The position numbers and the translations under genes were made by a program. Below the pieces are notes generated by a model. The model was not told where the DNA came from. It did not search any database and was given only the letters and a program-made list of their open reading frames with translations. From IMG/VR virus record IMGVR_UViG_2541047854_000004: DNA of 35,094 bases; one strand, given 5' to 3'. Below, in pieces: positions 6,998 to 35,094 of this stretch. Within the stretch, counting starts at the first letter, position 1. Each line of letters starts with the position of its first letter. Source of the stretch: a virus (taxonomy: Duplodnaviria > Heunggongvirae > Uroviricota > Caudoviricetes).

Positions 6998-7020
6998 GGG
7001 TTACTGATTTTTAAAGAGCG

Positions 7021-7191: not shown

Positions 7192-7210
7192 GGTTAGAGA
7201 AAAGGGGGGG

Positions 7211-9092: not shown

Positions 9093-9124
9093 GGGACGAT
9101 CATGAGCAAACCAGTAATGATTGA
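8933..9124 (+). CDS. Small phage protein, paralogue of the 1765-2043 product (DUF4222-like)
   Basis: TTG start with AAGGAGA RBS 7 nt upstream; product ...[35 protein letters not shown]... shares a motif with the 1765-2043 protein; stop overlaps the next ATG. Confidence 0.55.
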
Positions 9125-12427: not shown

Positions 12428-12446
12428 TTAAGAGGAGAAACGAAGT

Positions 12447-13256: not shown

Positions 13257-13257
13257 G

Positions 13258-14253: not shown

Positions 14254-14270
14254 TTTTGTGGAGAAAGTTG

Positions 14271-14651: not shown

Positions 14652-14720
14652 AAAATGATTAGTGCGGTCCGCAAAAAGTATGTCAGTATGTTAAGAGTGG
14701 TTACTTCGCCACACAACTTA

Positions 14721-14744
14721 AACCCGCCACTGAGCGGGTTTTTT
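14721..14744 (+). terminator. Rho-independent terminator after Q (tR'-like)
   Basis: Stem AACCCGC / GCGGGTT, loop CACTGA, then T6; about 70 nt after the Q stop, leaving room for a late promoter. Confidence 0.65.
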
Positions 14745-14868
14745 GTACCTGTAAACTTGGTGCAGTACAGTAAACACGCTGGTGGTCGTGAATACTGGCT
14801 TTTTATCTTGCTGGCTTTTTAGACAAGAGTTATTGGTATGTCACGTTAACCGGAAAGGGTAAAAAGAC

Positions 14869-15138
14869 ATGCTGAAACAGCAGGATATGACAGAAACCGC
14901 CAGAGTTGTGTTTGATGAATTAAGCGTTACCGAACCGGCGACAGTCGGGGAGATTGCGCAGAATACTTACCTTTCACGCGAACGCTGCCAGTTAATACTG
15001 ACCCAGCTTGTTATGGCGGGTCTGGCAGACTATCAGTGCGGTTGTTACAGACGCCTTCAGTCCTTAAGGCTTTTTATTTGTGGTGAATGGGCGGCTGGTG
15101 GGGGGGCGACACCTGTCAGTCCTTTGCTTATGTGTTGA
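14869..15138 (+). CDS. Small hypothetical protein, possible winged-HTH
   Basis: 89-aa ORF with AAGGG RBS; N-terminal half protein-like (TVGEIAQNTYLSRERCQLILTQLVMAGL), C-terminal third low quality; AT-rich. Confidence 0.35.
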   Translation: MLKQQDMTETARVVFDELSVTEPATVGEIAQNTYLSRERCQLILTQLVMAGLADYQCGCYRRLQSLRLFICGEWAAGGGATPVSPLLMC

Positions 15139-15165
15139 TGATAATTTACCTTTTAGGGCTATAAT
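15135..15165 (+). promoter_or_regulatory. Candidate sigma-70 promoter for the AraC-family gene
   Basis: -35 TTGATG (15135-15140), 19-bp spacer (longer than optimal), perfect -10 TATAAT (15160-15165), about 35 nt before the ATG at 15201. Confidence 0.35.
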
Positions 15166-15200
15166 TGAGCTAACCAATTGCTAATGAAAGTAAAATTATA

Positions 15201-15914
15201 ATGGCTGTTGTCTGTTCAGTTATCATGGTTTGCTCCCCAATTAATATTTTTCTTGAAAAGGATACGTTGTCACTTAAGCCAGGCTCAGTTGTTCTGGCCA
15301 CCAAATGCATCAGGGAGCTTTTCCTTATGCATTATGGCAAAGTTAAAATTGTCGATATAAGCGAATCCGTCGTAAGTCAATATCTGGAAAGTCAGCATAA
15401 GCTGACGAGGACTCGTCTGACTGACATTCCGCTTTACCTGTTGCTGGAACCCAACAATCCTGCGTTGGCTGCGGCTTTAATTACCAGCCAGGGATTTTCC
15501 GGAGAGGCCACGGATATGTTTCTTATGATGGCCTGCCTGTCTCTGTTTGAAACAGATGAACGGATGTCATTGTTTTTAAGTGGATGTTTATCCAGCATAA
15601 GTGCCAAAGTCAGGGCGATAATTCAGACAGATATATCAGCAAGCTGGACGCTTGGTGCGATTGCTCTACAGTTGCATATGAGTGAGAGTTTGTTAAAGAC
15701 AAAACTGAAAAATGAAGGGGGCATGTTCAGTCGCTTGTTGCTGGAAGAGCGGATGCGTGTTGCTGTAAATATGTTATGTTCCCGGCATGGATATGGACAG
15801 GCTATAGCAGAAAAATGCGGTTATTCAAGCAGGTCCTACTTTATTTCTGTATTTCACCGCTATTATGGCTTCCCGCCAGACAGATATGTATCCAGGCAAG
15901 GGCTTGATTATTGA
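15201..15914 (+). CDS. AraC/XylS-family transcriptional regulator (AppY-like moron)
   Basis: C-terminal dual-HTH signature (WTLGAIALQLHMSESLLKTKLK...GYGQAIAEKCGYSSRSYFISVFHRYYGFPPDRY); N-terminus MAVVCSVIMVC resembles prophage-encoded AppY as I recall it; AT-rich. Confidence 0.8.
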   Translation: MAVVCSVIMVCSPINIFLEKDTLSLKPGSVVLATKCIRELFLMHYGKVKIVDISESVVSQYLESQHKLTRTRLTDIPLYLLLEPNNPALAAALITSQGFSGEATDMFLMMACLSLFETDERMSLFLSGCLSSISAKVRAIIQTDISASWTLGAIALQLHMSESLLKTKLKNEGGMFSRLLLEERMRVAVNMLCSRHGYGQAIAEKCGYSSRSYFISVFHRYYGFPPDRYVSRQGLDY

Positions 15915-15942
15915 TTTTCATCTGATTATTATTTTTTGGCTC

Positions 15943-16018
15943 GGCCCTTTAGCTCAGTGGTGAGAGCGAGCGACTCATAATCGCCAGGTCGCTGGTTCAA
16001 ATCCAGCAAGGGCCACCA
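15943..16018 (+). tRNA. tRNA with CAU anticodon (Met, or Ile if lysidine-modified)
   Basis: 7-bp acceptor stem GGCCCTT/AAGGGCC, D-arm AGCTCAGTGG, anticodon loop CTCATAA, T-loop GGTTCAAATCC, encoded CCA. Position matches the ileZ-argN-argO trio of Stx-type lambdoid phages (from memory). Confidence 0.85.
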
Positions 16019-16025
16019 TCACATA

Positions 16026-16099
16026 CCGCCATTAGCTCATCAGGAAAGAGCGCCAGCCTTCGAAGCTGGTTGCGCGGAGTTCGGGTCCCCGAAGGCGGT
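16026..16099 (+). tRNA. tRNA-Arg(UCG)-like, possibly degenerate
   Basis: Anticodon loop CTTCGAA, but the acceptor stem has an A-A mismatch, the T-loop is TTCGGGT (non-canonical position 58) and no CCA is encoded. Confidence 0.55.
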
Positions 16100-16115
16100 T
16101 CATTATCTGTATCCT

Positions 16116-16192
16116 GCGTTGTTAGCTCAGCCGGACAGAGCAATTGCCTTCTAAGCAATCGGTCACTGGTTCGAATCCAGTACAACGCGCCA
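16116..16192 (+). tRNA. tRNA-Arg(UCU)
   Basis: Acceptor stem GCGTTGT/ACAACGC, anticodon loop CTTCTAA, T-loop GGTTCGAATCC, discriminator G and encoded CCA. Confidence 0.85.
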
Positions 16193-16207
16193 GACTTATT
16201 TTTCCCA

Positions 16208-16232
16208 GCTCGCTTTTGCGGGCCTTTTTTTT
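16208..16232 (+). terminator. Intrinsic terminator after the tRNA cluster
   Basis: Stem GCTCGC/GCGGGC (one G-U pair), TTTT loop, then T8. Confidence 0.5.
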
Positions 16233-16432
16233 AAATGTCTCACAATTCAGACGGTTGACAGTTGTCTGTTTTGCGGGGAGTTTGTTAAAAGAAACTGGCA
16301 TGGTGAATCCCCCTGTGCGGAGGGGCAATCAGCGAGTAGGTATATGGGATAATCGCGGATTCAGGTGCTGGTACTGAATTCACCGGGAGGCACCCGGCAC
16401 CATGCAGTTGACTGAAACCATGTATACTCTCA

Positions 16433-16462
16433 GGCCCCACGCACATGTGTTGGGGCCTTTTT
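16433..16462 (+). terminator. Intrinsic terminator upstream of the lysis cassette
   Basis: Stem GGCCCCA/TGGGGCC, 11-nt loop, then T5; a second hairpin preceded by A8 (16470-16496) follows immediately. Confidence 0.55.
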
Positions 16463-16633
16463 ACATGCAAAAAAAAGCCCGCATATGGATACGGGCGGCA
16501 AGGAACAAAAAACGTGAAGTGATCTATTCAGCCAGTGGATAATACCCTGACGTTACCATATTGCGCAATCGCGCATTCTTTCTTTTTCGCTCCCCTTATA
16601 ACTACGCCATCCGTTCGCTGCGGAGGTGAGGCT

Positions 16634-16849
16634 ATGAAATCCATGGATAAAATTTCAACGGGCATTGCCTACGGCACCTCCGCAGGCAGTGCTGGCTACT
16701 GGTTTTTACAGTGGCTTGATCAGGTCAGTCCGTCACAGTGGGCTGCGATTGGTGTACTGGGGAGTCTGGTTCTGGGCTTCCTGACATATCTGACTAACCT
16801 GTATTTCAAAATCAGAGAGGACCGTCGTAAGGCTGCACGGGGAGAGTAA
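16634..16849 (+). CDS. S: Phage-21-type pinholin (S21) with dual start
   Basis: [71 protein letters not shown] matches S21 as I recall it; two in-frame starts (16634 and 16643); GGAGGTGA RBS. ORF-track start at 16535 is an extension. Confidence 0.85.
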
Positions 16850-16853
16850 TTCA

Positions 16854-17204
16854 ATGACTCAAAACTATGAACTGATTGTGAAAGGGATCCGCAATTTTGA
16901 GAATAAAGTTACGGTAACTTTAGCGTTACGGGACAAAAAACGCTTTGACGGTGAAATTTTTGACCTGGACATCTCGCTGGACCGTGTTGAAGGTGCCGCG
17001 CTGGAGTTTTATGAGGAAGCAGCCAGAAGGAGCATCAGACAGGTCTTCCTGGATGTTGCTGCCGGGTTATGTGAAGGGGATGAGCAGTCGCCGGAAAAGC
17101 GCCCCGTAATTTTAGAGGCGCAGAATGTGTGGATAACCTACAAAGGAAAGCTACCGGGAAGAATTACTGGTTCTCTGAAGACTCCTCCGGAATCACAACC
17201 TTAA
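16854..17204 (+). CDS. Hypothetical protein inside the lysis cassette (DUF1327/YdfR-like by position)
   Basis: 116-aa ORF with GGGGAGAG RBS between holin and endolysin, as in the Qin prophage; family call by synteny only. Confidence 0.45.
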   Translation: MTQNYELIVKGIRNFENKVTVTLALRDKKRFDGEIFDLDISLDRVEGAALEFYEEAARRSIRQVFLDVAAGLCEGDEQSPEKRPVILEAQNVWITYKGKLPGRITGSLKTPPESQP

Positions 17205-17267
17205 GTCACTGACCGGAACAGATAAACCTGTCCGTGGGCAGAAACCGATAAATCCTGATAAATATCC

Positions 17268-17801
17268 ATGAACGCAAAAATCAGATACGGCCTGTCGGCT
17301 GCCGTTCTGGCACTGATTGCCGTCGGTGCGCCCGCGCCTGATATTCTCGACCAGTTTCTGGATGAAAAAGAAGGTAACCACACAACGGCATACCGCGATG
17401 GTTCCGGCATCTGGACCATCTGTCGGGGTGCCACGATGGTGGATGGAAAACCCGTTTTTCCCGGTATGAAACTGTCGAAGGAAAAATGCGACCAGGTCAA
17501 CGCCATTGAGCGTGATAAGGCGCTGGCATGGGTGGAGCGCAATATTAAAGTACCACTGACCGAACCACAAAAAGCGGGTATCGCGTCATTTTGTCCCTAT
17601 AACATTGGCCCCGGTAAGTGTTTTCCATCGACGTTTTATAAGCGGCTGAATGCTGGTGATCGTAAGGGCGCATGCGAGGCGATTCGCTGGTGGATAAAAG
17701 ATGGTGGGCGCGATTGCCGCATACGTTCAAATAACTGCTATGGACAGGTTATTCGTCGTGACCAAGAAAGCGCATTAGCCTGTTGGGGAATAGATCAGTG
17801 A
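17268..17801 (+). CDS. R: SAR endolysin (T4-lysozyme-like, R21-type)
   Basis: N-terminal signal-anchor-release segment [17 protein letters not shown] followed by the lysozyme catalytic region ([22 protein letters not shown]). Confidence 0.9.
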
Positions 17802-18262
17802 GCAGAGTCGCCGCGATTATTTATGCTCTGGTTATCTGCATCATCGTCTGCCTGTCGTGGGCGGTCAATCATTACCGTGATAACGCCATCGCCTACAAAG
17901 AACAGCGTGATAAAAAAGTCAGTGAGCTGAAGCTGGCGATCGCCACCATCGCTGACATGCAGCAGCGTCAGCGTGATGTTGCTGCGCTCGATGCAAAGTA
18001 CTCGAGAGAATTAGCCAATGCGAAAGCTGAAAATGAAACTCTGCGCGCTGATGTTGCCGCTGGTCGTCGTCGGTTGCACATCAAAGCAGTCTGTCAGTCA
18101 GTGCGTGAAGCCACCACCGCCTCCGGCGTGGATAATGCAACCAGCCCCCGACTGGAAGACACCGCTGAACGGGATTATTTCACCCTCAGAGAGCGGCTGA
18201 TGACGATGCAGATGCAACTGGAAGGGGCACAGGAGTATATCCGCACTCAGTGCATTAAGTAG
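17798..18262 (+). CDS. Rz: Rz i-spanin
   Basis: GTG start overlapping the endolysin stop (GTGA); product [28 protein letters not shown]... closely matches lambda Rz; N-terminal TM plus coiled coil. Confidence 0.85.
18018..18200 (+). CDS. Rz1: Rz1 o-spanin (lipoprotein), embedded in Rz in the +1 frame
   Basis: Lipobox LVVVGC and Pro-rich mature region ([30 protein letters not shown]), near-identical to lambda Rz1 from memory. Confidence 0.8.
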
Positions 18263-18304
18263 CCTTTTTATCGTGGTAAACATTTCGCAGGGTATGAGGT
18301 ATTT

Positions 18305-22416: not shown

Positions 22417-23008
22417 CCGTGAAACGCGCTGTTACAGCGGGGAGGTGCGGGCGGAACAATATGATAATGCCCCGACCCACATTCTGGGCTATGGCTCGGT
22501 ATTTAACAGTCGTTCAGAACCTCTGTGGGGATTTCGTGAAATCATCAAGCCGGGGGCTTTTGATGATGTACTGAATGATGATGTACGTGGCTTGTTTAAT
22601 CATGATCCTAATTTCATTCTCGGACGAAGTTCTGCCGGCACGTTGTCATTGTCGGTGGATGAACGCGGTTTACGTTATGACATTGTTGCACCGGATACTC
22701 CGACTATTTGTGACCTGGTGCTGTCTCCAATGTTGCGTGGTGACATTAATCAGTCCTCGTTCGCGTTTCGTGTCGCCCGTGACGGAGAGAGCTGGTATGA
22801 AGACGACGAGGGGATTGTTATCCGGGAAATCACGCGCATTTCTCGTCTGTATGACGTCAGCCCGGTGACATATCCGGCCTATCAGGACGCAGACTCTGGT
22901 GTCCGCTCAATGAAAGCCTGGCAGGAAGCGCGGGCGAGTGGTGCGCTGAAGAAAGCTGTTAACGAACGAATGGCGCGTGAGCGTCTTTTGACCCTTCTTA
23001 ATGCATAA
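22409..23008 (+). CDS. Prohead protease (HK97 family)
   Basis: 199-aa ORF overlapping the portal stop; between portal and major capsid. Confidence 0.85.
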   Translation: MNDRETRCYSGEVRAEQYDNAPTHILGYGSVFNSRSEPLWGFREIIKPGAFDDVLNDDVRGLFNHDPNFILGRSSAGTLSLSVDERGLRYDIVAPDTPTICDLVLSPMLRGDINQSSFAFRVARDGESWYEDDEGIVIREITRISRLYDVSPVTYPAYQDADSGVRSMKAWQEARASGALKKAVNERMARERLLTLLNA

Positions 23009-23022
23009 GGATACTACTGACG

Positions 23023-24240
23023 ATGAAACTTCATGAGATGAAGCAAAAACGAAACACCATTGCAAAGGATATGCGTGCACTGCATGAAAAAATTGGTGAT
23101 AACGCATGGACTGATGAGCAACGGGCAGAGTGGAACAGGGCGAAAGCTGAGCTGGATGCGCTGGATGAGCAAATCGCCCGTGAAGAAGAGTTGCGCCGTC
23201 AGGATCAGGCATATGTGGATGAGTCCGGGCCGGAAGAGCGCCAGAATAATGAGGCGGAGAACGGGAAAAAGGCGGTGGAAGAGAAGCGCGCTGCGGCATT
23301 TAACCGTTTTCTGCGTGCCGGATTTGCAGAACTGAATGCTGAAGAGCGTAATCTGATGCGTGAACTGCGGGCTCAGAGTGTAACAACGGATTCTCAGGGC
23401 GGATATACGGTGCCCACGCAGATGCGTAACAAAATCATTGACACCATGAAGGCTTATGGCGGGATTGCCAGTGTGGCGCAACTTCTGACCACATCAACCG
23501 GGCAGGATATCACCTGGTCAACGTCTGATGGCACGACTGAAGAGGGCGAACTGCTGGCGGAAAATACAGCCGCAACGGAACAGGATGTGACGTTCGGGAC
23601 CGCTATTCTGGGGGCTAAAAAGCTGTCATCAAAAATAATTCGTGTGTCCAATGAGCTGCTCCAGGACAGTGGGGTGGATATTGAATCTTATCTGGCAAAC
23701 CGTATTGCCCAGCGTATTGGTCGTGGAGAGGCAAAATATCTGGTTCAGGGGACCGGAACGGGATCACCGTTACAGCCAAAAGGGCTGGCAGCGTCGGTGA
23801 CGGGAACCATCCAGACTGCAGCCTCTGCCGCTTTCACCTGGAAAGAAATGAATGCCCTGAAACATGCCATTGATCCGGCATATCGTGGTGGGCCGAAATA
23901 CCGCTGGGCATTCAATGATGCCACATTGCAGACTATTGAAGAGATGGAGGATGGACAGAAACGCCCGTTATGGCTGCCGGATATTGCAGGCGGTACGCCG
24001 GCTACTGTGCTGGGGATCCCTTATGTTATTGATCAGGCTATTGACGGGATTGGTACCGGAAAAAAATTCATTTTCCTGGGGGATTTCAACCGCTTTATCA
24101 TTCGCCGCGTTACTTATATGGAACTGAAACGTCTGGTTGAGCGTTATGCTGAGTTTGATCAGGTGGCATTTCTGGCTTTCCATCGTTTTGACTGTGTGCT
24201 GGAAGATGTGGCAGCCATCAAGGCGCTCACTGGCAAATAA
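23023..24240 (+). CDS. Major capsid protein (HK97 fold)
   Basis: 405-aa ORF with coiled-coil scaffold-like N-terminal delta domain (EQRAEWNRAKAELDALDEQIAREEELRRQDQ), followed by a strong terminator. Confidence 0.9.
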   Translation: MKLHEMKQKRNTIAKDMRALHEKIGDNAWTDEQRAEWNRAKAELDALDEQIAREEELRRQDQAYVDESGPEERQNNEAENGKKAVEEKRAAAFNRFLRAGFAELNAEERNLMRELRAQSVTTDSQGGYTVPTQMRNKIIDTMKAYGGIASVAQLLTTSTGQDITWSTSDGTTEEGELLAENTAATEQDVTFGTAILGAKKLSSKIIRVSNELLQDSGVDIESYLANRIAQRIGRGEAKYLVQGTGTGSPLQPKGLAASVTGTIQTAASAAFTWKEMNALKHAIDPAYRGGPKYRWAFNDATLQTIEEMEDGQKRPLWLPDIAGGTPATVLGIPYVIDQAIDGIGTGKKFIFLGDFNRFIIRRVTYMELKRLVERYAEFDQVAFLAFHRFDCVLEDVAAIKALTGK

Positions 24241-24261
24241 CCACTCGTTGTTCAGTTACAG

Positions 24262-24283
24262 ACCGCGCCGACGCGGTTTTTTT
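24262..24283 (+). terminator. Intrinsic terminator/attenuator after the major capsid gene
   Basis: Stem ACCGCG/CGCGGT, tetraloop CCGA, then T7; a second GC hairpin at 24287-24306. Confidence 0.6.
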
Positions 24284-24316
24284 ATGCCCGCACAGTGTTG
24301 CGGGCAGGAGTTTCTG

Positions 24317-24634
24317 ATGGCAGCAATAGTGGAAAAACTCAGGGCGCAGTGCCGTATTGATACAGATGATGCAACTGATGATGAGTTACTGATGCTGTAT
24401 TTCCGGGCTGCCTGCCGCAAGGCAGAAAATTTTATCAACCGTAAGCTTTATGAGGAGACGGTGCCGGAAGGTGATCCTGAAGGGGTGCTTATAGCTGATG
24501 ATGTTTTGCTGGCGCTCATGTTGCTGGTCGGGCACTGGTACGAAAACCGGGAAAATTCCTCAGATGTCAGCAAGGCACCAGTCCCGTTTGGTTTTTCTTC
24601 TCTTCTGGAGCCTTATCGTTTTATTCCTTTGTAG
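24317..24634 (+). CDS. Head-tail connector (gp6-like)
   Basis: 106 aa from the ATG with GGAG RBS; ORF-track start at 24137 overlaps the capsid gene and is rejected. Confidence 0.7.
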   Translation: MAAIVEKLRAQCRIDTDDATDDELLMLYFRAACRKAENFINRKLYEETVPEGDPEGVLIADDVLLALMLLVGHWYENRENSSDVSKAPVPFGFSSLLEPYRFIPL

Positions 24635-24642
24635 GAGGAGAC

Positions 24643-24981
24643 ATGCAGGCGGGCAGATTACGTGATCGCGTAATTATTCTGAATGTCACCACCGCCCGCT
24701 CTCCGTCAGGGCATCCGGTGGAGACGGTGACGGAGGGAGCTACCGTATGGGCAGAAGTTAAGGGTATCAGCGGGAGGGAGATAATCTCAGGCGGAGCAGA
24801 AACCGCTCAGGCTACGGTCAGAGTCTGGATGAGATTCCGGCGCGATGTGACAGCGACTTCACGTCTGAAAGTGCTGACCGGTGCATTCAAAGGCGCGATT
24901 CTGGGTATAGAAGGTCCACCAATACCGGATGCACGCGCTACCCGGCTTGAAATGCTCTGCAGCCTGAAGGGAAATGTGTGA
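24643..24981 (+). CDS. Head-tail adaptor / head closure protein
   Basis: 112-aa ORF with GGAGGAG RBS; conserved position in HK97-type modules. Confidence 0.65.
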   Translation: MQAGRLRDRVIILNVTTARSPSGHPVETVTEGATVWAEVKGISGREIISGGAETAQATVRVWMRFRRDVTATSRLKVLTGAFKGAILGIEGPPIPDARATRLEMLCSLKGNV

Positions 24982-25427
24982 TGGATTTCAGTCTTGATTT
25001 TTCCGGCCTGGCGGATATTGCACGGGATTTGGAGGCGCTCAGCAGGGCAGAAAACAATAAGGTTCTGCGCGATGCCACCCGTGCCGGTGCTGAAGTTATG
25101 CGGGATGCAGTTGTTGAACGTGCGCCGGAGCGAACCGGGAAACTGAAGAAAAATGTGGTTGTTCTCACTCAGCGTTCAAAGCGTCGGGGGGAAATTATCT
25201 CGGGTGTCCACATTCGCGGACGGAACCTGCGAACCGGAAACAGTGATAACAGCATGAAAGCCAGCGATCCCCGAAATGCATTTTACTGGCGCTTTGTGGA
25301 GCTGGGAACGATAAACATGCCCGCGCATCCATTCATTCGTCCGGCTTTCGATACGACAGAGGAGCTGGCGGCGCAGGTTGCCATACAGCGAATGAATCAG
25401 GCTATTGATGAGGTCTTAAGTAAATGA
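24978..25427 (+). CDS. HK97 gp10-like tail-component protein
   Basis: 149-aa ORF; start GTG 24978 or ATG 24981, overlapping the upstream stop. Confidence 0.65.
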   Translation: MMDFSLDFSGLADIARDLEALSRAENNKVLRDATRAGAEVMRDAVVERAPERTGKLKKNVVVLTQRSKRRGEIISGVHIRGRNLRTGNSDNSMKASDPRNAFYWRFVELGTINMPAHPFIRPAFDTTEELAAQVAIQRMNQAIDEVLSK

Positions 25428-25768
25428 GGGAGGGCACACTGTATTCCCTGTTGTCTCAGCTGGCCGGAGGACAGGTTTATCCTTATGTGGTCCCGCTGAC
25501 GGAGGGAAAGCCTGCGGTATCTCCGCCGTGGCTGGTGTTTTCTGTGGTGTCTGACACGGCATCTGATGTGCTTGATGGGCAGGCTGAATCCAGAATTACC
25601 GTGCAGATCGATGTCTGGGCGACAGTACCTGATGACGCAGATAATATTCGTGAGCAGGCGCTTGATGCGGTAAGAAAACTGGCACCCTCCGTTATTTCTA
25701 AAACGCAGGGGTATGATCCTGACTCCCGTCTGAGCAGAGCCACGCTTGAATTTCAGGTAATAGCCTGA
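25424..25768 (+). CDS. Tail completion / terminator protein (DUF3168-like)
   Basis: 114-aa ORF with ATGA overlap; position before the major tail protein. Confidence 0.6.
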   Translation: MREGTLYSLLSQLAGGQVYPYVVPLTEGKPAVSPPWLVFSVVSDTASDVLDGQAESRITVQIDVWATVPDDADNIREQALDAVRKLAPSVISKTQGYDPDSRLSRATLEFQVIA

Positions 25769-25788
25769 GGTCGTTAATGATTTACCCA

Positions 25789-25810
25789 CCCGCCGCTGGC
25801 GGGTTTTTTT
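25789..25810 (+). terminator. Intergenic hairpin with T-run before the major tail gene
   Basis: Stem CCCGCC/GGCGGG, then T7; RBS and ATG of the next gene follow within 20 nt. Confidence 0.5.
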
Positions 25811-25827
25811 ATTTTCAGGAGACGAGT

Positions 25828-26532
25828 ATGTCCTCTAATTTTGAGCGTTCGCAACTGACGAAAATTATGATTTCGTCTGCACCGGTAACAGCAGAAACCC
25901 TGGATTCTGCCAGCTATCTTGGCCTGAGCTGTACAATCAAAGAGGTGCAGTTTACCGCAGGACAAAAGCAGGATATTGATGTCACCACGCTGTGTTCTGT
26001 TGAGCAGGAAAATATTAACGGCCTTGGGGCTGCTTCAGAGATTTCCATGTCAGGCAACTTTTATCTGAATGCTGCCCAGAACGCGTTGCGCAGTGCCTAT
26101 GACAATGACACCACGTATGGCTTTAAAGTTATTTTTCCGTCAGGCAACGGATTTACCTTTATGGCAGAGGTGCGTCAGCATACCTGGTCTGCAGGAACCA
26201 ATGGTGTTGTGGCTGCAACGTTTTCCCTGCGTCTGAAAGGTAAACCTGTGCTGACGACAGAGCCGCTGAAAGTGAAGGCCAATTTAAAAAGCACGCTGCG
26301 GGTTGCTTCCGGAGCGAAACTTGAAATGGCGGTTGAGGCTGCGGGTGGTATGCCGCCTTATTCTTATGTCTGGAAGAAAGGTGGTTCTCCTGTTTCCGGA
26401 CAGACGGCGGCAACGTTCAGTAAGGCATCGGCAGTATCCGGTGATGCGGGTGCATATACCTGCGAGATTTCTGATTCAGCAAGCCCGGTTAACAAAGTGA
26501 CCTCTACTTCCTGCACTGTAACCGTCAGTTAA
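25828..26532 (+). CDS. V: Major tail protein (lambda V-like, with C-terminal Ig-like domain)
   Basis: 234 aa from the ATG with GGAG RBS; C-terminal region (...PYSYVWKKGGSPVSGQTAATFSKASAVSGDAGAYTCEISDSASPVNK...) resembles a Big_2-type Ig domain. Confidence 0.8.
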   Translation: MSSNFERSQLTKIMISSAPVTAETLDSASYLGLSCTIKEVQFTAGQKQDIDVTTLCSVEQENINGLGAASEISMSGNFYLNAAQNALRSAYDNDTTYGFKVIFPSGNGFTFMAEVRQHTWSAGTNGVVAATFSLRLKGKPVLTTEPLKVKANLKSTLRVASGAKLEMAVEAAGGMPPYSYVWKKGGSPVSGQTAATFSKASAVSGDAGAYTCEISDSASPVNKVTSTSCTVTVS

Positions 26533-26918
26533 TGAGGATGGATGTGATGACTAAAAATATCCGTAATCTGGCACTGGCAACGATGTCGGGGTTTCGCCAT
26601 AAAACCGTTGATGTGCCTGAATGGGAGGGAGCAACGGTTGTGTTACGGGAACCTTCTGCAGAAGCCTGGTTGCGCTGGCAGGAGATCGTTAAAGCAAAAG
26701 ATGATGAGACACCGTTATCCGTTGCGGAGCGCGCCCGCCGAAATCTGGAGGCAGATGTTGAACTGTTCATTGATGTTCTGTGTGATACCGGACTGCAACC
26801 CGTATTTTCAGAGGATGATCGTGAACAGGTGATTGCCGTGTATGGCCCGGTGCATGCGCGGCTTCTTCGGCAGTCTCTGGAACTGATCAGTGATGCCGGC
26901 GAGGTTAAAAAAAAGTAG
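26532..26918 (+). CDS. G: Tail assembly chaperone G
   Basis: Position between V and the tape measure; ends at the slippery site; start is ATG 26532 or 26547 (GAGGA RBS). Confidence 0.75.
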   Translation: MRMDVMTKNIRNLALATMSGFRHKTVDVPEWEGATVVLREPSAEAWLRWQEIVKAKDDETPLSVAERARRNLEADVELFIDVLCDTGLQPVFSEDDREQVIAVYGPVHARLLRQSLELISDAGEVKKK

Positions 26919-27220
26919 CGCTTCCGGGGATGCGTTTTCTGATGATGCTGGCGCTCAGGATGGGGCGCACATTGTCAGAGTTACGCCGGGAAATGTCCGC
27001 ATCAGAAATCATGATGTGGGCAGAATTTGACAGGTTCAGCCCGCTGGGTGACGAGCGGGCTGATATCCGGGCTGCCCAGATTGTTTCAGCTGTTTACGGT
27101 GCGCAGGGGGTCAAAGTGCCACTGAATGATGCGCTTCTTCAGTGGGAGCAGGAGCAGACAGAAGGCGTCTCAGATCCATTTGCCGGACTGGAAAACGCGC
27201 TTTTAATAGTGTCTCAGTGA
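26915..27220 (+). CDS. T: T portion of the G-T frameshift product
   Basis: -1 frame open from 26909; slippery heptamer A AAA AAG at 26909-26915 precedes the G stop (26916-26918). Standalone ATG at 26930 lacks an RBS. Confidence 0.65.
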   Translation, partial: VALPGMRFLMMLALRMGRTLSELRREMSASEIMMWAEFDRFSPLGDERADIRAAQIVSAVYGAQGVKVPLNDALLQWEQEQTEGVSDPFAGLENALLIVSQ

Positions 27221-27228
27221 GTCAACAT

Positions 27229-27250
27229 AACCGCTTCGGCGGTTTTTTTT
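27229..27250 (+). terminator. Intergenic hairpin (UUCG tetraloop) with T-run before the tape measure gene
   Basis: Stem AACCGC/GCGGTT, loop TTCG, then T8. Confidence 0.5.
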
Positions 27251-27260
27251 CGTCCGGAGA

Positions 27261-30200
27261 ATGAGTGTGGCGACATTACGTGAACTGATTATTAAAATCT
27301 CGGCAAATTCCCGGTCATTCCAGTCAGAGATCTCCCGGGCTTCGCGTATGGGGCAGGATTACTACCGTACCATGCAGAACGGAGGCCGACAGTCCGCTGC
27401 TGCATCCCGTGAAATGCGGCGTGCACTGGCAGAAGTGACGGATCAGATAAATACAGCTAAATCTTCGGCACTGAACATGGCGGGGGCATTTGCCGGGGCT
27501 TTTGCTACCGGTCATCTTATTTCTCTCGCCGATGAGTGGAATTCAGTAAATGCCCGTCTGAAGCAGGCCTCACAGTCCAGTGATGATTTTCAGTCATCAC
27601 AGCGTGAATTAATGGCGATCAGCCAGAGAACGGGGACGGCTTTTTCTGATAACGCCAGCCTTTTTGCCCGCTCTGCAGCTTCCATGCGGGAGTATGGTTA
27701 CAGTTCTGAGGAGGTACTGAAAGTCACCGAGGCGATCTCCACGGGCCTGAAATTATCCGGTGCCAGTACAGCAGAAGCCAGTTCGGTGATCACGCAGTTC
27801 AGTCAGGCTCTGGCGCAGGGAGTGCTGCGCGGTGAAGAGTTTAACTCGGTGAATGAGAACGGCGATCGTGTTATTCGTGCTCTGGCTGCGGGAATGGGAG
27901 TTGCCCGTAAGGATCTGAAGGCCATGGCGGATAACGGAAAGTTGACCGCCGATAAGGTTGTTCCTGCACTGATTAGTCAGCTTGGGGCATTACGTGATGA
28001 ATATGCGGCAATGCCTGATACGGTTTCATCCTCTGCAACCAAAGTTGAAAACGCCTTTATGGCCTGGGTTGGTGGTGCGAACGAGGCAAGCGGAGTGACG
28101 AAGACGCTCTCCGGTGTGCTGAATGGTATTGCAGGCAATATTGACACCGTGGCAACCGCTGCCGGTGCTCTGGTTGCCGTCGGGGTAGCCCGATATTTTG
28201 GCAATATGGCGTCGTCTGCTGGATCTGCAACTGCCGGATTAATTACTGCAGCCAGAAACGAAGTGGCTCTTGCTGAAGTGCAACTTCGGGGGACACAGAT
28301 AGCAACCGCCAGGGCGCGTGCGGCGGTTTATCGTGCGCAACAGGCGGTTGTTGCTGCTCGCGGTACCGAAAGGCAGGCCGCAGCAGAAGCGAAGCTGACA
28401 GCTGCCCAGGTGTCACTTACCCGTAATATTGCGGCCAGAACAGCGGCACAGACAACGCTGAATAATGTTACGTCAGTGGGGAGTCGTTTATTAAGTGGCG
28501 CGCTGGGGCTGGTTGGTGGTGTGCCGGGACTCGTCATGCTGGGGGCTGCGGCCTGGTACACGATGTATCAGAATCAGGAGCAGGCCAGAGAATCTGCACG
28601 CCAGTATGCCGCAACAATCGACGAAATTCGCCAGAAAACGTCGGCAATGTCGCTTCCTGAAGCGTCAGATAATGAGGAAAAGACGCGACAGGCACTGAAG
28701 GAGCAAAACAGGTTAATTGACGAGCAGAAAAGTAAGATTAAATCCTTACAGGAAAAAATTGCTGGCTATCAGTATGTGCTGGCAAACCCGGGCTGGACAA
28801 CCGATAACGGTTTTATGATTAACCACATGACGTCGGTAAAAACTGTCACAGAAGGGCTTGCAGAAGCAACAAATCAACTGGCAGTTGAACAGTCTCGCCT
28901 CACTCAAATGCAGGGCAAAGCGCAATCCATTCAGGATGTGCTTGCCGGGCTGGAGGAGCGACGGGTGGCGTTGATCCGTCAACAGGCCGCGGAACAAAAC
29001 AAAGCGTATCAGTCCCTGTTGATCATGAATGGGCAGCATACCGAGTTTAATCGCCTTCTCGGGCTCGGTAATGAATTACTTCAGCAGCGACAGGGGCTGG
29101 TGAATGTACCGTTACGGCTACCACAGGCAACCCTGGATGATAAACAGCAGACCGCACTGAATAACAGCGAGCGCGAACTGGCTCTGTCCCGCCTGAAGGG
29201 GGAAGCTCGTGAGCGTGCCCGCCTGGGTTATGCTGCGGATGATCTCGGCTTTGTGGGAGAGGCGTATCAGACAGCAAGACTGAATTATATAAATAACTCA
29301 CTGGATGCATGGCGAAATAACCAGGCAAATAAACCCAAAGCGCATAAAAAGACCGAAGCGGAAAAAACAGAGGATATTTATAAACGGCTGATTAAACAGC
29401 AAAAAGAACAGATAGCACTGGCAGGGCAGAATACTGAACTGGCTAAGATGAAATATCAGGTCAGTCAGGGCGAATTATCAACCCTGTCAGAAGCGCAGAA
29501 AAAAACGCTTTTGCAGAATGCAGCACTTATCGACCAGAAAAAGATTCGTGAGCAGCTTGCTGCGTATGAGAGCAGTCTGGCGGACAGTAATGCCAGTGTC
29601 AGAGCATCAAATGAGGCTCAGTTACTGGGATATGGTGAAGGCTCACGGATGCGTGAACGACTTCAGGAAATGTGGAGCATCCGGCAGGAGTTTGAGCAGA
29701 AAAATAACGAGCTACTGAGACAGTATCAGGCCGGAGAAATTGAAGAAGCCCTGTGGAAACAGGAGAAAGAGCTGAATAAAAAATATCTGGAAGAGCGTCT
29801 CAGCGATCAGCAGGATTATTATGCAAAGGCTGATGCTTTACGCAGTAACTGGAATGCCGGGCTCAAAGAGGGGCTGACGAACTGGGCAGACAGTGCCACC
29901 GATTATGCTTCGCAGGCGGCAGATGCTGTCGTTTCCACGATGGACGGGCTGGTATCAAATATTTCCGATGCACTGGCCGGGAATGTTGTGGACTGGAGGA
30001 ACTGGGGGAGTTCAGTTCTCCGGGAAGTTTCAAAAATTCTGATGAATGCAGCCATTGTTAACGGACTGAAATCACTCTCCGGTGCCGGAGGGTGGCTTGG
30101 TACGGTCGGCGGATGGATTTCGGGGGCAGTGGCAAACGCAAAAGGTGGTGTTTACACATCGGCAAATCTGAGTGCGTACAGCAACAGCATTGTGGACACG

Positions 30201-30494
30201 CCCACGTACTTTGCGTTTGCAAAAGGGGCCGGGCTGATGGGGGAAGCCGGACCTGAAGCCATTATGCCCCTGACCCGGGCGGCGGATGGCTCGCTGGGCG
30301 TACGCGCGGTGGGCAGTATGAACGGCAGTGCCGGTCTGGTGTATTCCCCGGTCTACCACATCGCCATTCAGAATGACGGGGCTAACGGACAGATAGGGCC
30401 GGAGGCGGCAGGCAGTCTTGTGCAGCTGATTGACCAGCGGGTGCAGGCGGTGATGCTGTCCATGCGACGTGACGGAGGAATGCTGAGTGGCTGA
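27261..30494 (+). CDS. H: Tail tape measure protein (lambda H-like)
   Basis: 1077-aa ORF, largely alpha-helical/coiled-coil composition, between G/T and M. Confidence 0.9.
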   Translation: MSVATLRELIIKISANSRSFQSEISRASRMGQDYYRTMQNGGRQSAAASREMRRALAEVTDQINTAKSSALNMAGAFAGAFATGHLISLADEWNSVNARLKQASQSSDDFQSSQRELMAISQRTGTAFSDNASLFARSAASMREYGYSSEEVLKVTEAISTGLKLSGASTAEASSVITQFSQALAQGVLRGEEFNSVNENGDRVIRALAAGMGVARKDLKAMADNGKLTADKVVPALISQLGALRDEYAAMPDTVSSSATKVENAFMAWVGGANEASGVTKTLSGVLNGIAGNIDTVATAAGALVAVGVARYFGNMASSAGSATAGLITAARNEVALAEVQLRGTQIATARARAAVYRAQQAVVAARGTERQAAAEAKLTAAQVSLTRNIAARTAAQTTLNNVTSVGSRLLSGALGLVGGVPGLVMLGAAAWYTMYQNQEQARESARQYAATIDEIRQKTSAMSLPEASDNEEKTRQALKEQNRLIDEQKSKIKSLQEKIAGYQYVLANPGWTTDNGFMINHMTSVKTVTEGLAEATNQLAVEQSRLTQMQGKAQSIQDVLAGLEERRVALIRQQAAEQNKAYQSLLIMNGQHTEFNRLLGLGNELLQQRQGLVNVPLRLPQATLDDKQQTALNNSERELALSRLKGEARERARLGYAADDLGFVGEAYQTARLNYINNSLDAWRNNQANKPKAHKKTEAEKTEDIYKRLIKQQKEQIALAGQNTELAKMKYQVSQGELSTLSEAQKKTLLQNAALIDQKKIREQLAAYESSLADSNASVRASNEAQLLGYGEGSRMRERLQEMWSIRQEFEQKNNELLRQYQAGEIEEALWKQEKELNKKYLEERLSDQQDYYAKADALRSNWNAGLKEGLTNWADSATDYASQAADAVVSTMDGLVSNISDALAGNVVDWRNWGSSVLREVSKILMNAAIVNGLKSLSGAGGWLGTVGGWISGAVANAKGGVYTSANLSAYSNSIVDTPTYFAFAKGAGLMGEAGPEAIMPLTRAADGSLGVRAVGSMNGSAGLVYSPVYHIAIQNDGANGQIGPEAAGSLVQLIDQRVQAVMLSMRRDGGMLSG

Positions 30495-30828
30495 GATAAA
30501 AACGCTGCATCTGGTCCCGCGTGAAGGGATGCAGGTGAGTGAGAAACCGTCGGTGGTGAGGGTTCGGTTTGGTGACGGTTATGAACAGCGCCGCCCCACA
30601 GGACTGAATCCTCAACTGAAGACGTTTCAGGCGGTGTTCCGGGTGACGGATGAGTCAACCCGGCGCTGGCTGGATGAATTTTTATCCTGGCATGGTGGTT
30701 ACCGTGCCTTTTTGTGGCGACCGCCGAAACATAACCGGACGGTGAGGGTGGTGTGTCGGGAGTGGAGCGTCACGGATAACGCCCGGTACAGTGATTTCAG
30801 CTGTACGATTGAGCAGGTGGTGAACTGA
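30487..30828 (+). CDS. M: Minor tail protein M
   Basis: GTG start overlapping the H stop; motif VVRVRFGDGYEQRRPTGLN and C-terminal EQVVN match lambda M from memory. Confidence 0.85.
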   Translation: MAEIKTLHLVPREGMQVSEKPSVVRVRFGDGYEQRRPTGLNPQLKTFQAVFRVTDESTRRWLDEFLSWHGGYRAFLWRPPKHNRTVRVVCREWSVTDNARYSDFSCTIEQVVN

Positions 30829-31526
30829 TGCAGGATATCCGACAGGAAACACTGAATGAATGCACCCGTGCGGAGCAGTCTGCCAGCGTGGTGCTCTGGG
30901 AAATCGATCTGACAGAGGTTGGTGGAGAACGTTATTTTTTCTGTAATGAGCAGAACGAAAAAGGTGAGCCGGTCACCTGGCAGGGGCGACAGTATCAGGC
31001 ATATCCCATTCAGGGGAGTGGTTTCGAACTGAATGGCAAAGGCACCAGTACGCGCCCCACGCTGACGGTTTCTAACCTGTACGGCATGGTCACCGGGATG
31101 GCGGAAGATCTGCAGAGTCTGGTCGGCGGAACGGTGGTCCGGCGTAAGGTTTACGCCCGTTTTCTGGATGCGGTGAACTTCGTCAACGGAAACAGTGACG
31201 CCGATCCGGAGCAGGAGGTGATCAGCCGCTGGCGCATCGAGCAGTGCAGCGAACTGAGCGCGGTGAGTGCCTCTTTTGTACTGTCCACGCCGACGGAAAC
31301 GGATGGTGCTGTTTTTCCGGGACGTACCATGCTGGCCAACACCTGCACCTGGACCTATCGCGGTGATGAGTGCGGTTATCACGGTCCGGCGGTCGCGGAT
31401 GAATATGACCAGCCGACGTCCGATATCACGAAGGATAAATGCAGCAAATGCCTGAGTGGTTGTAAGTTTCGCAATAATGTCGGCAACTTTGGCGGCTTCC
31501 TTTCTATTAACAAACTTTCGCAGTAA
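30828..31526 (+). CDS. L: Minor tail protein L
   Basis: 232 aa; TGATG overlap with M; Cys cluster near the C-terminus (CTWTYRGDECGY...CSKCLSGCKF) as in lambda L. Confidence 0.85.
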   Translation: MQDIRQETLNECTRAEQSASVVLWEIDLTEVGGERYFFCNEQNEKGEPVTWQGRQYQAYPIQGSGFELNGKGTSTRPTLTVSNLYGMVTGMAEDLQSLVGGTVVRRKVYARFLDAVNFVNGNSDADPEQEVISRWRIEQCSELSAVSASFVLSTPTETDGAVFPGRTMLANTCTWTYRGDECGYHGPAVADEYDQPTSDITKDKCSKCLSGCKFRNNVGNFGGFLSINKLSQ

Positions 31527-31530
31527 TCCC

Positions 31531-32274
31531 ATGACAGAGACAGAATCAGCGATTCTGGCGCACGCCCGGCGATGTGCGCCAGCGGAGTCGTGCGGCTTCG
31601 TAGTGAGAACGCCGGAGGGGGAAAGATATTTTCCCTGCGTGAATATCTCCGGTGAGCCGGAGGCGTATTTCCGTATGTCGCCGGAAGACTGGCTGCAGGC
31701 AGAAATGCAGGGTGAGATTGTGGCGCTGGTCCACAGCCACCCCGGTGGTCTGCCCTGGCTGAGTGAGGCCGACCGGCGGCTGCAGGTGCAGAGTGATTTG
31801 CCGTGGTGGCTGGTCTGCCGGGGGACGATTCATAAGTTCCGCTGTGTGCCGCATCTCACCGGGCGGCGCTTTGAGCACGGGGTGACGGACTGTTACACGC
31901 TGTTCCGGGATGCTTATCATCTGGCGGGGATTGAGATGCCGGATTTTCATCGCGAGGATGACTGGTGGCGTCACGGTCAGAATCTCTATCTGGATAATCT
32001 GGAGGCCACAGGGCTGTATCAGGTGCCGTTGTCATCAGCACAACCGGGCGATGTGCTGCTGTGCTGTTTTGGTTCATCGGTGCCGAATCATGCCGCCATT
32101 TACTGTGGTGATGGCGAGCTGCTGCACCATATTCCTGAACAACTGAGCAAACGAGAGAGGTATACCGACAAATGGCAGCGACGCACACACTCCCTCTGGC
32201 GTCACCGGGCATGGCACGCATCTGCCTTTACGGGGATTTGCAACGATTTGGCCGCCGCATCGACCTTCGTGTGA
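31531..32274 (+). CDS. K: Tail assembly protein K (JAB/MPN plus NlpC/P60-type domains)
   Basis: MTETESAILAHARRCAPAESCGFVV...HSHPGG... near-identical to lambda K as recalled; ORF-track start at 31456 overlaps L. Confidence 0.85.
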   Translation: MTETESAILAHARRCAPAESCGFVVRTPEGERYFPCVNISGEPEAYFRMSPEDWLQAEMQGEIVALVHSHPGGLPWLSEADRRLQVQSDLPWWLVCRGTIHKFRCVPHLTGRRFEHGVTDCYTLFRDAYHLAGIEMPDFHREDDWWRHGQNLYLDNLEATGLYQVPLSSAQPGDVLLCCFGSSVPNHAAIYCGDGELLHHIPEQLSKRERYTDKWQRRTHSLWRHRAWHASAFTGICNDLAAASTFV

Positions 32275-32843
32275 AAACGGGGGCCGAAGCCATCCGGGCG
32301 CTGGCCACACAGCTCCCGGCGTTTCGTCAGAAACTGAGCGACGGCTGGTATCAGGTGCGTATTGCCGGGCAGGATGTCAGCACGTCCGGATTAACGGCGC
32401 AGTTACATGAGGCTCTGCCTGACGGCGCTGTGATTCATATTGTTCCCAGAGTCGCCGGGGCCAAGTCAGGTGGTGTATTCCAGATTGTCCTGGGAGCAGC
32501 CGCCATTGCCGGATCATTCTTTACTGCCGGAGCCACCCTTGCAGCATGGGGGGCAGCCATTGGGGCCGGTGGTATGACCGGCATCCTGTTTTCTCTCGGT
32601 GCCAGTATGGTGCTCGGTGGTGTGGCGCAGATGCTGGCACCGAAAGCCAGAACTCCCCGTACACAGACAACGGATAACGGTAAGCAGAACACCTATTTCT
32701 CCTCACTGGATAACATGGTTGCCCAGGGCAATGTTATGCCTGTTTTGTATGGTGAAATGCGCGTGGGGTCACGTGTGGTATCTCAGGAGATCAGCACGGC
32801 AGATGAAGGGGACGGTGGTCAGGTTGTGGTGATTGGTCGATGA
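32172..32843 (+). CDS. I: Tail assembly protein I
   Basis: 223 aa overlapping the 3' end of K as in lambda; Gly/Ala-rich hydrophobic middle segment; near-identical to lambda I as recalled. Confidence 0.85.
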   Translation: MAATHTLPLASPGMARICLYGDLQRFGRRIDLRVKTGAEAIRALATQLPAFRQKLSDGWYQVRIAGQDVSTSGLTAQLHEALPDGAVIHIVPRVAGAKSGGVFQIVLGAAAIAGSFFTAGATLAAWGAAIGAGGMTGILFSLGASMVLGGVAQMLAPKARTPRTQTTDNGKQNTYFSSLDNMVAQGNVMPVLYGEMRVGSRVVSQEISTADEGDGGQVVVIGR

Positions 32844-32861
32844 TGCAAAATATTTTATGTG

Positions 32862-32882
32862 AAACCGCCTGCAGGCGGTTTT
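32862..32882 (+). terminator. Intergenic hairpin before the J-like gene
   Basis: 8-bp stem AAACCGCC/GGCGGTTT, loop TGCA, short T-run; weak as a terminator. Confidence 0.35.
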
Positions 32883-32903
32883 GTCGTTTATGGAGCATGA
32901 CGA

Positions 32904-34754
32904 ATGGGTAAAGGCAGCAGTAAGGGGCATACCCCGCGCGAAGCGAAGGACAACCTGAAATCTACGCAGTTGCTGAGTGTGATTGATGCCATCAGTGAAG
33001 GGCCGATTGAAGGTCCGGTGGATGGATTAAAAAGCGTGCTGCTGAACAGTACGCCGGTGCTGGACACTGAGGGGAATACCAACATCTCCGGTGTCACGGT
33101 GGTGTTCCGGGCAGGTGAGCAGGAGCAGACTCCGCCGGAGGGATTTGAATCCTCCGGCTCCGAGACGGTGCTGGGTACGGAAGTGAAATATGACACGCCG
33201 ATCACCCGGGCCATCACGTCGGCAAACATTGACCGACTGCGTTTTACCTTCGGCGTGCAGGCACTGGTGGAAACCACCTCAAAGGGGGACAGGAATCCGT
33301 CGGAAGTCCGCCTGCTGGTTCAGATACAACGTAACGGTGGCTGGGTGACGGAAAAAGACATCACCATTAAAGGCAAAACCACCTCACAGTATCTGGCCTC
33401 GGTGGTGGTGGGTAACCTGCCGCCGCGCCCGTTTAATATCCGGATGCGCAGGATGACGCCGGACAGCACCACAGACCAGCTGCAGAACAAAACGCTCTGG
33501 TCGTCATACACCGAAATCATCGATGTGAAACAGTGCTACCCGAACACGGCACTGGTCGGCGTGCAGGTGGACTCGGAGCAGTTCGGCAGCCAGCAGGTGA
33601 GCCGTAATTATCATCTTCGCGGGCGCATTCTGCAGGTGCCGTCGAACTATAACCCGCAGACGCGGCAATACAGCGGTATCTGGGACGGAACGTTTAAGCC
33701 AGCATACAGCAACAACATGGCATGGTGTCTGTGGGATATGCTGACCCACCCGCGCTACGGCATGGGGAAACGTCTTGGTGCGGCGGATGTGGATAAATGG
33801 GCGCTGTATGTCATCGGCCAGTATTGCGACCAGTCGGTGCCGGACGGTTTTGGCGGTACGGAGCCGCGCATCACCTGTAATGCGTACCTGACCACACAGC
33901 GTAAGGCGTGGGATGTGCTCAGTGATTTCTGCTCGGCGATGCGCTGTATGCCGGTATGGAACGGGCAGACGCTGACGTTCGTGCAGGACCGACCATCAGA
34001 TAAGGTGTGGACCTATAACCGCAGTAATGTGGTGATGCCGGATGATGGCGCGCCGTTCCGCTACAGCTTCAGCGCCCTGAAGGACCGTCATAATGCCGTT
34101 GAGGTGAACTGGATTGATCCGGATAACGGCTGGGAGACGGCGACAGAGCTTGTGGAGGACACGCGGGCCATTGCCCGTTACGGTCGTAACGTCACGAAGA
34201 TGGATGCTTTTGGCTGTACCAGCCGGGGGCAGGCACACCGCGCCGGGCTGTGGCTGATTAAAACAGAACTGCTGGAAACGCAGACCGTGGACTTCAGCGT
34301 GGGCGCAGAAGGGCTTCGCCATGTACCGGGGGATGTCATTGAAATCTGCGATGATGACTATGCGGGTATCAGCATCGGCGGGCGCGTGCTGGCGGTGAAC
34401 AGCCAGACCCGGACGCTGACGCTCGACCGTGAAATCACGCTGCCATCCTCCGGTACCACGCTGATAAGCCTGGTTGACGGAAGTGGTAATCCGGTCAGGG
34501 TTTATGACGATCAGCCGTTTAACCGGCAGATTGTTATTCCGGCGGTGGCTTTCAGCGGTGCCAGACATGAGCGGGAGAACAGCGATACTTATTCGTCATG
34601 CCGCCTGATAGTGAAGAAAAACGGTGCTGAAATTTATAACCGTACCGCGATGGATAATACGCTGGTTTACAGTGGTGTTATTGATATGCCTGCTGGCGTG
34701 TCTGCTGATCTGGATGTTGATCCGTTAAATATAAAAAGTAAAAAGCCGCAGTAA
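32904..34754 (+). CDS. J: Central tail fibre / host-specificity protein J homologue, shortened (616 aa)
   Basis: N-terminal ~535 aa closely match lambda J as recalled (MGKGSSKGHTPREAKDNLKSTQLLSVIDAISEGPIEGPVDGLK...); short divergent C-terminus; GGAG RBS. Confidence 0.8.
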   Translation: MGKGSSKGHTPREAKDNLKSTQLLSVIDAISEGPIEGPVDGLKSVLLNSTPVLDTEGNTNISGVTVVFRAGEQEQTPPEGFESSGSETVLGTEVKYDTPITRAITSANIDRLRFTFGVQALVETTSKGDRNPSEVRLLVQIQRNGGWVTEKDITIKGKTTSQYLASVVVGNLPPRPFNIRMRRMTPDSTTDQLQNKTLWSSYTEIIDVKQCYPNTALVGVQVDSEQFGSQQVSRNYHLRGRILQVPSNYNPQTRQYSGIWDGTFKPAYSNNMAWCLWDMLTHPRYGMGKRLGAADVDKWALYVIGQYCDQSVPDGFGGTEPRITCNAYLTTQRKAWDVLSDFCSAMRCMPVWNGQTLTFVQDRPSDKVWTYNRSNVVMPDDGAPFRYSFSALKDRHNAVEVNWIDPDNGWETATELVEDTRAIARYGRNVTKMDAFGCTSRGQAHRAGLWLIKTELLETQTVDFSVGAEGLRHVPGDVIEICDDDYAGISIGGRVLAVNSQTRTLTLDREITLPSSGTTLISLVDGSGNPVRVYDDQPFNRQIVIPAVAFSGARHERENSDTYSSCRLIVKKNGAEIYNRTAMDNTLVYSGVIDMPAGVSADLDVDPLNIKSKKPQ

Positions 34755-34845
34755 CTTGTCATGACAGGATACTGCGGTTGGCTGGTTAACTTTCGATAGT
34801 GCGAGTATTGAATGATTTCCAGCCGTTACCGATTTTACGTGTTTA

Positions 34846-35094
34846 TTAGTGAACAAACCACTCGTCAGCAGACTCCCAAGTATCTTTCAGAGTCTCCTGA
34901 ACAAATGTTTTTGCAGAATCCTTATCTGCTGTGCGTGTAACAGAAAGCCCATCATTGCTGGTGGCTTTTACGATCACTTCTACATCGTCATAACGCTTAC
35001 TGATGCGCCGAGTTAATTCTTCCTTTAACGCATCCACAGCACCGGTTGGCATTTTAGTCATTTTTTCTTTGGCTATGCAGATCTCAATACGCAT
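34846..35094 (-). CDS. dinI: DinI-like protein
   Basis: [31 protein letters not shown]...[16 protein letters not shown] matches DinI (MRIEVTIAK...WESADDWFV) from memory; convergent with J. Confidence 0.8.

Follow-up and report, generated by a model that had tools for sequence, protein, structure and literature searches.

A probable deletion-derived remnant of the lambda-type tail tip gene J in a prophage of Escherichia coli KOEGE 40

The DNA analyzed here (the window, 35,094 nucleotides) contains an open reading frame (ORF) at 32904..34754 on the plus strand, beginning with ATG and encoding 616 amino acids (aa), that was delineated from the ORF list, exact-sequence look-ups and Pfam. Very probably, this ORF is a deletion-derived remnant of the tail tip gene J, in effect a pseudogene produced by ordinary prophage decay, and the prophage that carries it is tail defective. 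The exact-sequence look-up identified the product as GenBank EQV48190.1, annotated as "hypothetical protein G884_01964" of E. coli KOEGE 40 (102a), from scaffold KE701266.1 of assembly GCA_000459675.1. The original prediction had put the ORF at about half the length of lambda J, and this holds, given the 1132 aa of the lambda protein (PMC11101478). The product consists of residues 1 to 531 of an intact parent J, followed by residues 1051 to 1117 of the same protein and by 18 unrelated residues.

The parent allele was found in the closest relative identified by a megablast search of 5,426 complete E. coli genomes, namely, a prophage adjacent to prfC in E. coli MS8345 that matches the query with 99.9% identity. 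There, an intact J gene of 3480 nucleotides (1159 aa, WP_001513561.1) is followed by an Ail/Lom gene, a tail-fiber gene of 686 aa, two small genes of 92 and 95 aa, and a DinI-like gene. When the window was compared with this locus (L001) by BLAST and then base by base, three collinear blocks were resolved. The first runs up to window position 34498 (L001 up to 7595) and ends with J nucleotides 1 to 1595 (window 32904..34498, plus strand; L001 6001-7595). The second is an island of 203 bp (window 34494..34696, plus strand; L001 9148-9350) that corresponds to J nucleotides 3148 to 3350. The third starts at window position 34694 (L001 from 12810) with the 3'-terminal 35 bp of the 95-aa gene and continues through the intergenic region into dinI. 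The DNA that lies between these breakpoints in MS8345 is exactly the DNA that the window is without. The first 1595 nucleotides of J show no difference from the MS8345 gene, and the island shows one, at 34622, which is synonymous; because the 1,798 nucleotides of retained J DNA thus differ from the parent by a single synonymous base, the deletion damage is recent.

Both junctions could be placed by the exact limits of the matches. Junction 1, which is also evident from a three-way display of the sequences, is a 5-bp microhomology, GTCAG, at 34494..34498, in accord with the predicted switch in sequence around nucleotide 34500. The deletion at this point removed 1557 bp, or 519 codons, in frame, with the loss of parent J residues 532 to 1050. 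Junction 2 is a 3-bp microhomology, TGG, at 34694..34696, within an imperfect TGCC..TGG match. Here, 3462 bp were deleted, including J residues 1118 to 1159, lom, the 686-aa tail-fiber gene, the 92-aa gene and most of the 95-aa gene, so that the two deletions together amount to 5,019 bp. The second deletion accounts both for the missing lom and side-fiber genes and for the foreign C terminus of the product. The 18 foreign codons and their stop codon (34698..34754, plus strand) encode residues 599 to 616, VSADLDVDPLNIKSKKPQ, which are not derived from J; comparison of frames with the MS8345 gene at L001 12557-12844 shows that the J frame passes in the wrong register through the terminal 35 bp of the 95-aa gene and on into the intergenic palindrome. 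Since the parent locus accounts for every retained base, replacement by a foreign receptor-binding module was rejected. Of the two explanations first offered for the short ORF, internal deletion and replacement of the receptor-binding region, only deletion survives, and in a modified form: there are two deletions, and the loss extends past the receptor-binding region into the hub domain HDIV.

Downstream of the ORF, the ORF list and the locus comparison contain no lom, stf or tfa-like gene before a convergent DinI-family gene (34846..35094, minus strand; 82 aa), as had been noted from the sequence at the outset; the identical gene in the KOEGE 40 locus (L002) matches PF06183 (DinI). A 32-nucleotide near-perfect palindrome at 34746-34777, CCGCAGTAACTTGTCATGACAGGATACTGCGG, overlaps the new stop codon and was inherited from the parent, in which it occupies the intergenic DNA separating the 95-aa gene from dinI. 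This palindrome may be a bidirectional terminator; a promoter and terminator scan of 34400-35094 gave nothing above the shuffled expectation and did not call it.

The short identities at the junctions fit slipped-strand or other microhomology-mediated illegitimate recombination. For a random joint, the probability of a microhomology of at least 5 bp is ∼0.005 and that of at least 3 bp is ∼0.05. A search for repeats and insertion sequences (ISs) detected neither an IS nor a long repeat at either joint, only short chance repeats and the inherited palindrome, and deletion mediated by ISs or by long repeats was accordingly rejected. We propose that two microhomology-mediated deletions cut J and the genes downstream of it, either as separate events or as one two-step template switch. 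That a single complex template-switching event during replication made both junctions is possible, but two successive deletions may be likelier. Microhomology at both junctions would suit a single event, as would the short distance between them (an island of just 198 to 203 bp) and the near absence of divergence in both the island and the 5' part of the gene. The hypothetical products of either deletion alone, of 640 and 1135 aa, are likewise absent from a collection of 15 billion proteins searched for exact sequences, where near-identical forms would be missed, and from the complete genomes. These missing intermediates are weak evidence, however, given that the final allele itself is private to one lineage, and two independent deletions in a nonessential prophage region would be unremarkable.

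The truncated allele is rare. In the megablast search, 2,064 records covered at least 80% of the query and none covered all of it; in the best 30 of these 2,064 records, the query is split into two pieces, that is, two J segments ∼1.5 kb apart that together span ∼3.3 kb. A 381-bp query across both junctions detected neither junction in any of the 5,426 complete E. coli genomes, with no record covered to at least 80%. The one two-piece match of this query, in E. coli FY26 (73%, 90.9% identity), was set aside, as it arises from successive J pseudogene fragments at the record start that have no relation to the junctions. In FY26 (NZ_CP101741.1 4821210-4828846; L005 1-7366), three tandem J pseudogene fragments, each annotated as "missing N-terminus," lie at the very end of the circular record and could represent either a tandem partial duplication or a problem in the assembly or circularization of that record. 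An exact scan for a 39-mer across junction 1 gave no matches in species-representative genomes or in IMG/VR, both of which hold few E. coli strains, and it probably says little beyond the junction not being widespread. In the collection of 15 billion proteins, the exact 1159-aa parent protein was found on 204 contigs, compared with one NCBI contig plus read assemblies for the 616-aa form. By these sequence matches, the truncated allele is confined to a single strain or lineage, with E. coli KOEGE 40 and the matching read assemblies as its sole carriers. The possibility that 616 aa is the normal architecture of a J subfamily finds no support, since the query is split in the best 30 of the 2,064 records and neither junction was found in the complete genomes; a "short J subfamily" was therefore rejected. 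Compared with the 1159-aa allele, to which it is otherwise identical, the ORF has undergone genuine internal deletion.

An assembly artifact was also considered, in which short reads from several J-carrying prophages collapsed and the true genome carries full-length J, lom and stf. With a median of 4 places per E. coli genome matching the query, J is a multicopy repeat, and the sequence comes from a draft scaffold of the 2013 era; both facts make such a collapse conceivable. The joints, however, share just 5 bp and 3 bp, whereas k-mer and overlap assemblers would need a repeat at least as long as their word length, so that spanning reads would have been required for an assembler to join the two sides. 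Long repeats are absent from the joints, and the window contains no N. Furthermore, an independent Logan assembly of SRR958503 yielded a contig that is 100% identical across both junctions, and the same contig is common to 11 samples. The window is 100% identical to KE701266.1 over 22904-35094 and to the SRR958503 Logan contig over 22904-34832. Assembly collapse is thus an unlikely source of the junctions, and the collapse of several prophages into one, as set out above, is highly improbable.

The extent of the damage can be read from the structure of lambda J. Over residues 1 to 836, the parent is near-identical to lambda J (PDB 8iyk and others), so that the solved structure is directly usable. 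The match of the N-terminal ∼535 residues to lambda J that had been noted in the original prediction is close indeed: ORF residues 1 to 531 are ∼98.7% identical to lambda J, with ∼7 differences in a manual count made on the identical MS8345 allele aligned to chain J of PDB 8iyk. This part (J nucleotides 1 to 1595) comprises the HDII-insertion, FNIII-A, HDII and HDIII domains, and HDIV to the middle of its inserted beta-sandwich, according to the MS8345 comparison and the published domain limits (PMC10721106). In lambda J, residues 483 to 569 form a beta-sandwich that is inserted in HDIV between strands beta24 (477-482) and beta25 (570-578) (PMC10721106). The first deletion opens midway through this sandwich, at residue 532, and for that reason the HDIV sandwich fold is cut and beta25 is lost. 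Along with beta25, this deletion takes the linker, FNIII-1, FNIII-2, the alpha-helical shaft, the central straight fiber and the beginning of the receptor-binding domain; the second takes the last 42 residues of the receptor-binding domain, so that both ends of that domain are cut. The C-terminal stretch, which had been likened to the last part of lambda J, is of another kind. ORF residues 532 to 598, encoded by the island, correspond to parent J residues 1051 to 1117 and to lambda J residues 1023 to 1089 (∼44% identity by manual count) and are an internal piece of the Ig-like receptor-binding domain, as indicated by the locus match, alignment to lambda J and to A8 gpJ chains, and Pfam, whereas residues 599 to 616 are not J at all.

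The Pfam profiles agree with this map. Eight families are recognized in the parent, and three are left in the ORF: FNIII-A_GpJ (86-207) and Phage-tail_3 (330-497), both above the cut-offs, and a partial Ig_GpJ_C (530-599) that covers profile positions 24 to 93 of 135. Ig_J and Ig_J_second (parent residues 610-714 and 716-818) and Phage_Tail_Tip (872-1000) are absent from the ORF. As a side observation, parent residues 867 to 1159 (L001 8599-9477) are nearer to the PDB chains of "A8 gpJ 713" (9wca, E = 3e-183) than to those of lambda gpJ713 (8xcj, E = 5e-164). Given this affinity, the undamaged ancestor may not have had exactly the receptor specificity of lambda.

Compared with lambda gpJ (PDB 8IYK/8IYL/8K35/8XCG/8XCI), the ORF shares residues 1 to 531, its position after the H-M-L-K-I homologues and the start region; it lacks equivalents of lambda residues 532 to 1022 and 1090 to 1132 and adds the 18 unrelated C-terminal residues. 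Six features of the gpJ family could be assessed. The N-terminal hub domains (HDII-insertion, FNIII-A, HDII and HDIII) are present, and the gene comes last in the tail module, behind homologues of the tape measure, M, L, K and I. Conversely, a complete HDIV with inserted sandwich and beta25 is lacking, as the sequence departs from J after residue 531, and so are the two FNIII/Ig domains after the hub, the helical shaft with the central straight fiber, and a complete C-terminal Ig-like receptor-binding domain. With four of the six features missing, the ORF does not qualify as a complete gpJ-family protein; its J-derived part is homologous throughout. Compared with the MS8345 allele, the likeness lies in the retained J DNA and in a tail module of 99.7% identity, and the difference lies in the complete J, lom, fiber gene and two small genes that are present there.

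The element itself is bounded by an integrase gene (1-1314, minus strand) and by dinI. The 437-aa integrase is very widespread, being listed in 11,746 index blocks, and in other genomes it adjoins yecE (DUF72), yecN, cmoA and cmoB (L006 7341-10266). Beyond dinI, KOEGE 40 carries an isochorismatase-family gene and then aspS, nudB, yebC and ruvC (L002 12545-15193). These neighbors, namely, those of the integrase elsewhere and those beyond dinI in KOEGE 40, identify the element as a prophage integrated at yecE/yecD in the KOEGE 40 chromosome. The carrier of the tail module in MS8345 occupies a different site, next to prfC, and has a different integrase. In both KOEGE 40 and MS8345, dinI is the final prophage gene, and the dinI region is 99.5% identical in nucleotide sequence to the region of the MS8345 DinI-like gene. 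The prophage is lambdoid with head genes of the HK97 type, and upstream of the ORF, the Pfam annotation (L002/L003) gives the order TMP, Phage_min_tail, Phage_tail_L, JAB/NlpC and Lambda_tail_I. From 18305 (an HNH endonuclease gene that precedes those for terminase) to 34498, the window is collinear with MS8345, free of gaps and 99.7% identical; no second lesion of the structural module was seen in this comparison, which runs from 18305 to junction 1. The 5,019 bp deleted explain why the interval between int and dinI measures ∼35 kb here and ∼40 kb in MS8345. The early and regulatory half (window 1-18300 versus L004) is mosaic by comparison with MS8345, with blocks of 95 to 99% identity broken by unrelated DNA. 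Three phage-borne tRNA genes lie at 15943-16192 (plus strand), with the Q-like antiterminator region on one side and the lysis genes on the other; their anticodons are CAT, TCG and TCT, and the one with CAT is a tRNA-Ile in the MS8345 annotation.

In the lambda tip, the FNIII domains are wrapped around the lower hub and are connected to one another by the helical shaft (PMC11101478). The signal of receptor binding passes from the receptor-binding domain to the fiber and shaft, and from there to the FNIII and hub domains, opening the tail tube (PMC11101478). None of the parts of this relay (the complete receptor-binding domain, the fiber, the shaft, FNIII-1 and FNIII-2) is left in the ORF. The deletions removed everything from the distal half of HDIV through the central straight fiber, both ends of the receptor-binding domain, lom, the side-fiber gene and the two small genes. 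Because the start, the ribosome-binding site and the operon are untouched, the 616-aa protein would still be translated upon induction of the late genes. It would be unable to complete the HDIV fold, to form a closed trimeric tip with a central fiber or to attach to a receptor. Assembly of the lambda tail begins with J and cannot proceed without it (Katsura's pathway), and for that reason, the prophage alone should yield tail-less or noninfectious particles and no infectious ones. An infectious tail is almost certainly beyond the ability of this E. coli prophage. The open frame and ∼480 residues of intact hub domains make some partial assembly activity possible, and a further prophage of the cell, if it carried an intact J, might supply the function through complementation or recombination. 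A defective tail tip and an altered host range had originally been put forward side by side; the former is favored, and the latter is not supported.

An altered host range would require a functional short J, that is, a naturally compact tail tip protein with a new or reduced receptor-binding end. The first deletion is in frame, the reading frame stays open and some of the receptor-binding domain is retained, and some siphophages such as T5 divide the hub, fiber and receptor-binding functions among separate proteins (PMC10721106). All three breakpoints, however, fall inside folded domains (the HDIV sandwich at residue 532, and Ig_GpJ_C profile positions 24 and 93), a pattern that would be expected of random damage, unlike the construction of a functional modular variant. 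In addition, the final 18 residues are out-of-frame read-through, no separate fiber or receptor-binding gene lies downstream, the form was found in no other genome of the collections searched, and with zero divergence since the event, there is no sign of maintenance. The T5 hub protein pb3 likewise ends before the fiber and receptor-binding modules (PMC10721106), but it has complete HDIV and FNIII domains and separate partners, pb4 and pb5, whereas in the ORF, HDIV is cut, FNIII-1 and FNIII-2 are missing, and there are no partner genes. A functional short J is, on this evidence, barely credible. An equally faint prospect is accidental dominant-negative interference, in which the truncated J would poison the tail tips of related phages by coassembly with full-length J; the idea stems from the retained intact hub domains, which contact I, L and the neighboring J and are near-identical among many lambdoid phages, and if it were true, the truncated J would hit coresident or superinfecting lambdoid phages upon late transcription.

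Decay of a deleted, tail-defective prophage, the preferred reading, has precedents. Defective and cryptic lambdoid prophages of E. coli have lost tail-fiber function while most of the prophage is retained, and the KOEGE 40 element resembles them, as it resembles laboratory lambda, in having lost tail-fiber function by mutation with most of the phage kept. In laboratory lambda, the lesion is a frameshift in stf (PMC11101478, PMC10721106). Unlike that frameshift, the lesion in KOEGE 40 strikes the essential central tip protein J, beyond the dispensable side fibers; elsewhere, the 35-kb prophage looks collinear with its intact relatives. Sequence has been lost relative to a near-identical intact relative, and both losses, of 1557 and 3462 bp, map to direct junctions against MS8345, which is the mark of deletional decay.

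Both the gene of which the ORF is a damaged copy and the type of element that carries it are very well known; the ORF is no new kind of tail protein, and it opens no new biological question. Its value is chiefly practical. To gene callers, the ORF looks like an open J-like gene; a prophage classifier could therefore call the 35-kb element intact, and a predictor of host range could read from the ORF a receptor-binding domain that is absent. "Disrupted J in a tail-defective prophage" would be a better label than "hypothetical protein." Beyond annotation, the locus is a clean example, resolved to the base, of decay through microhomology in the region where lambdoid genomes are most prone to recombination.
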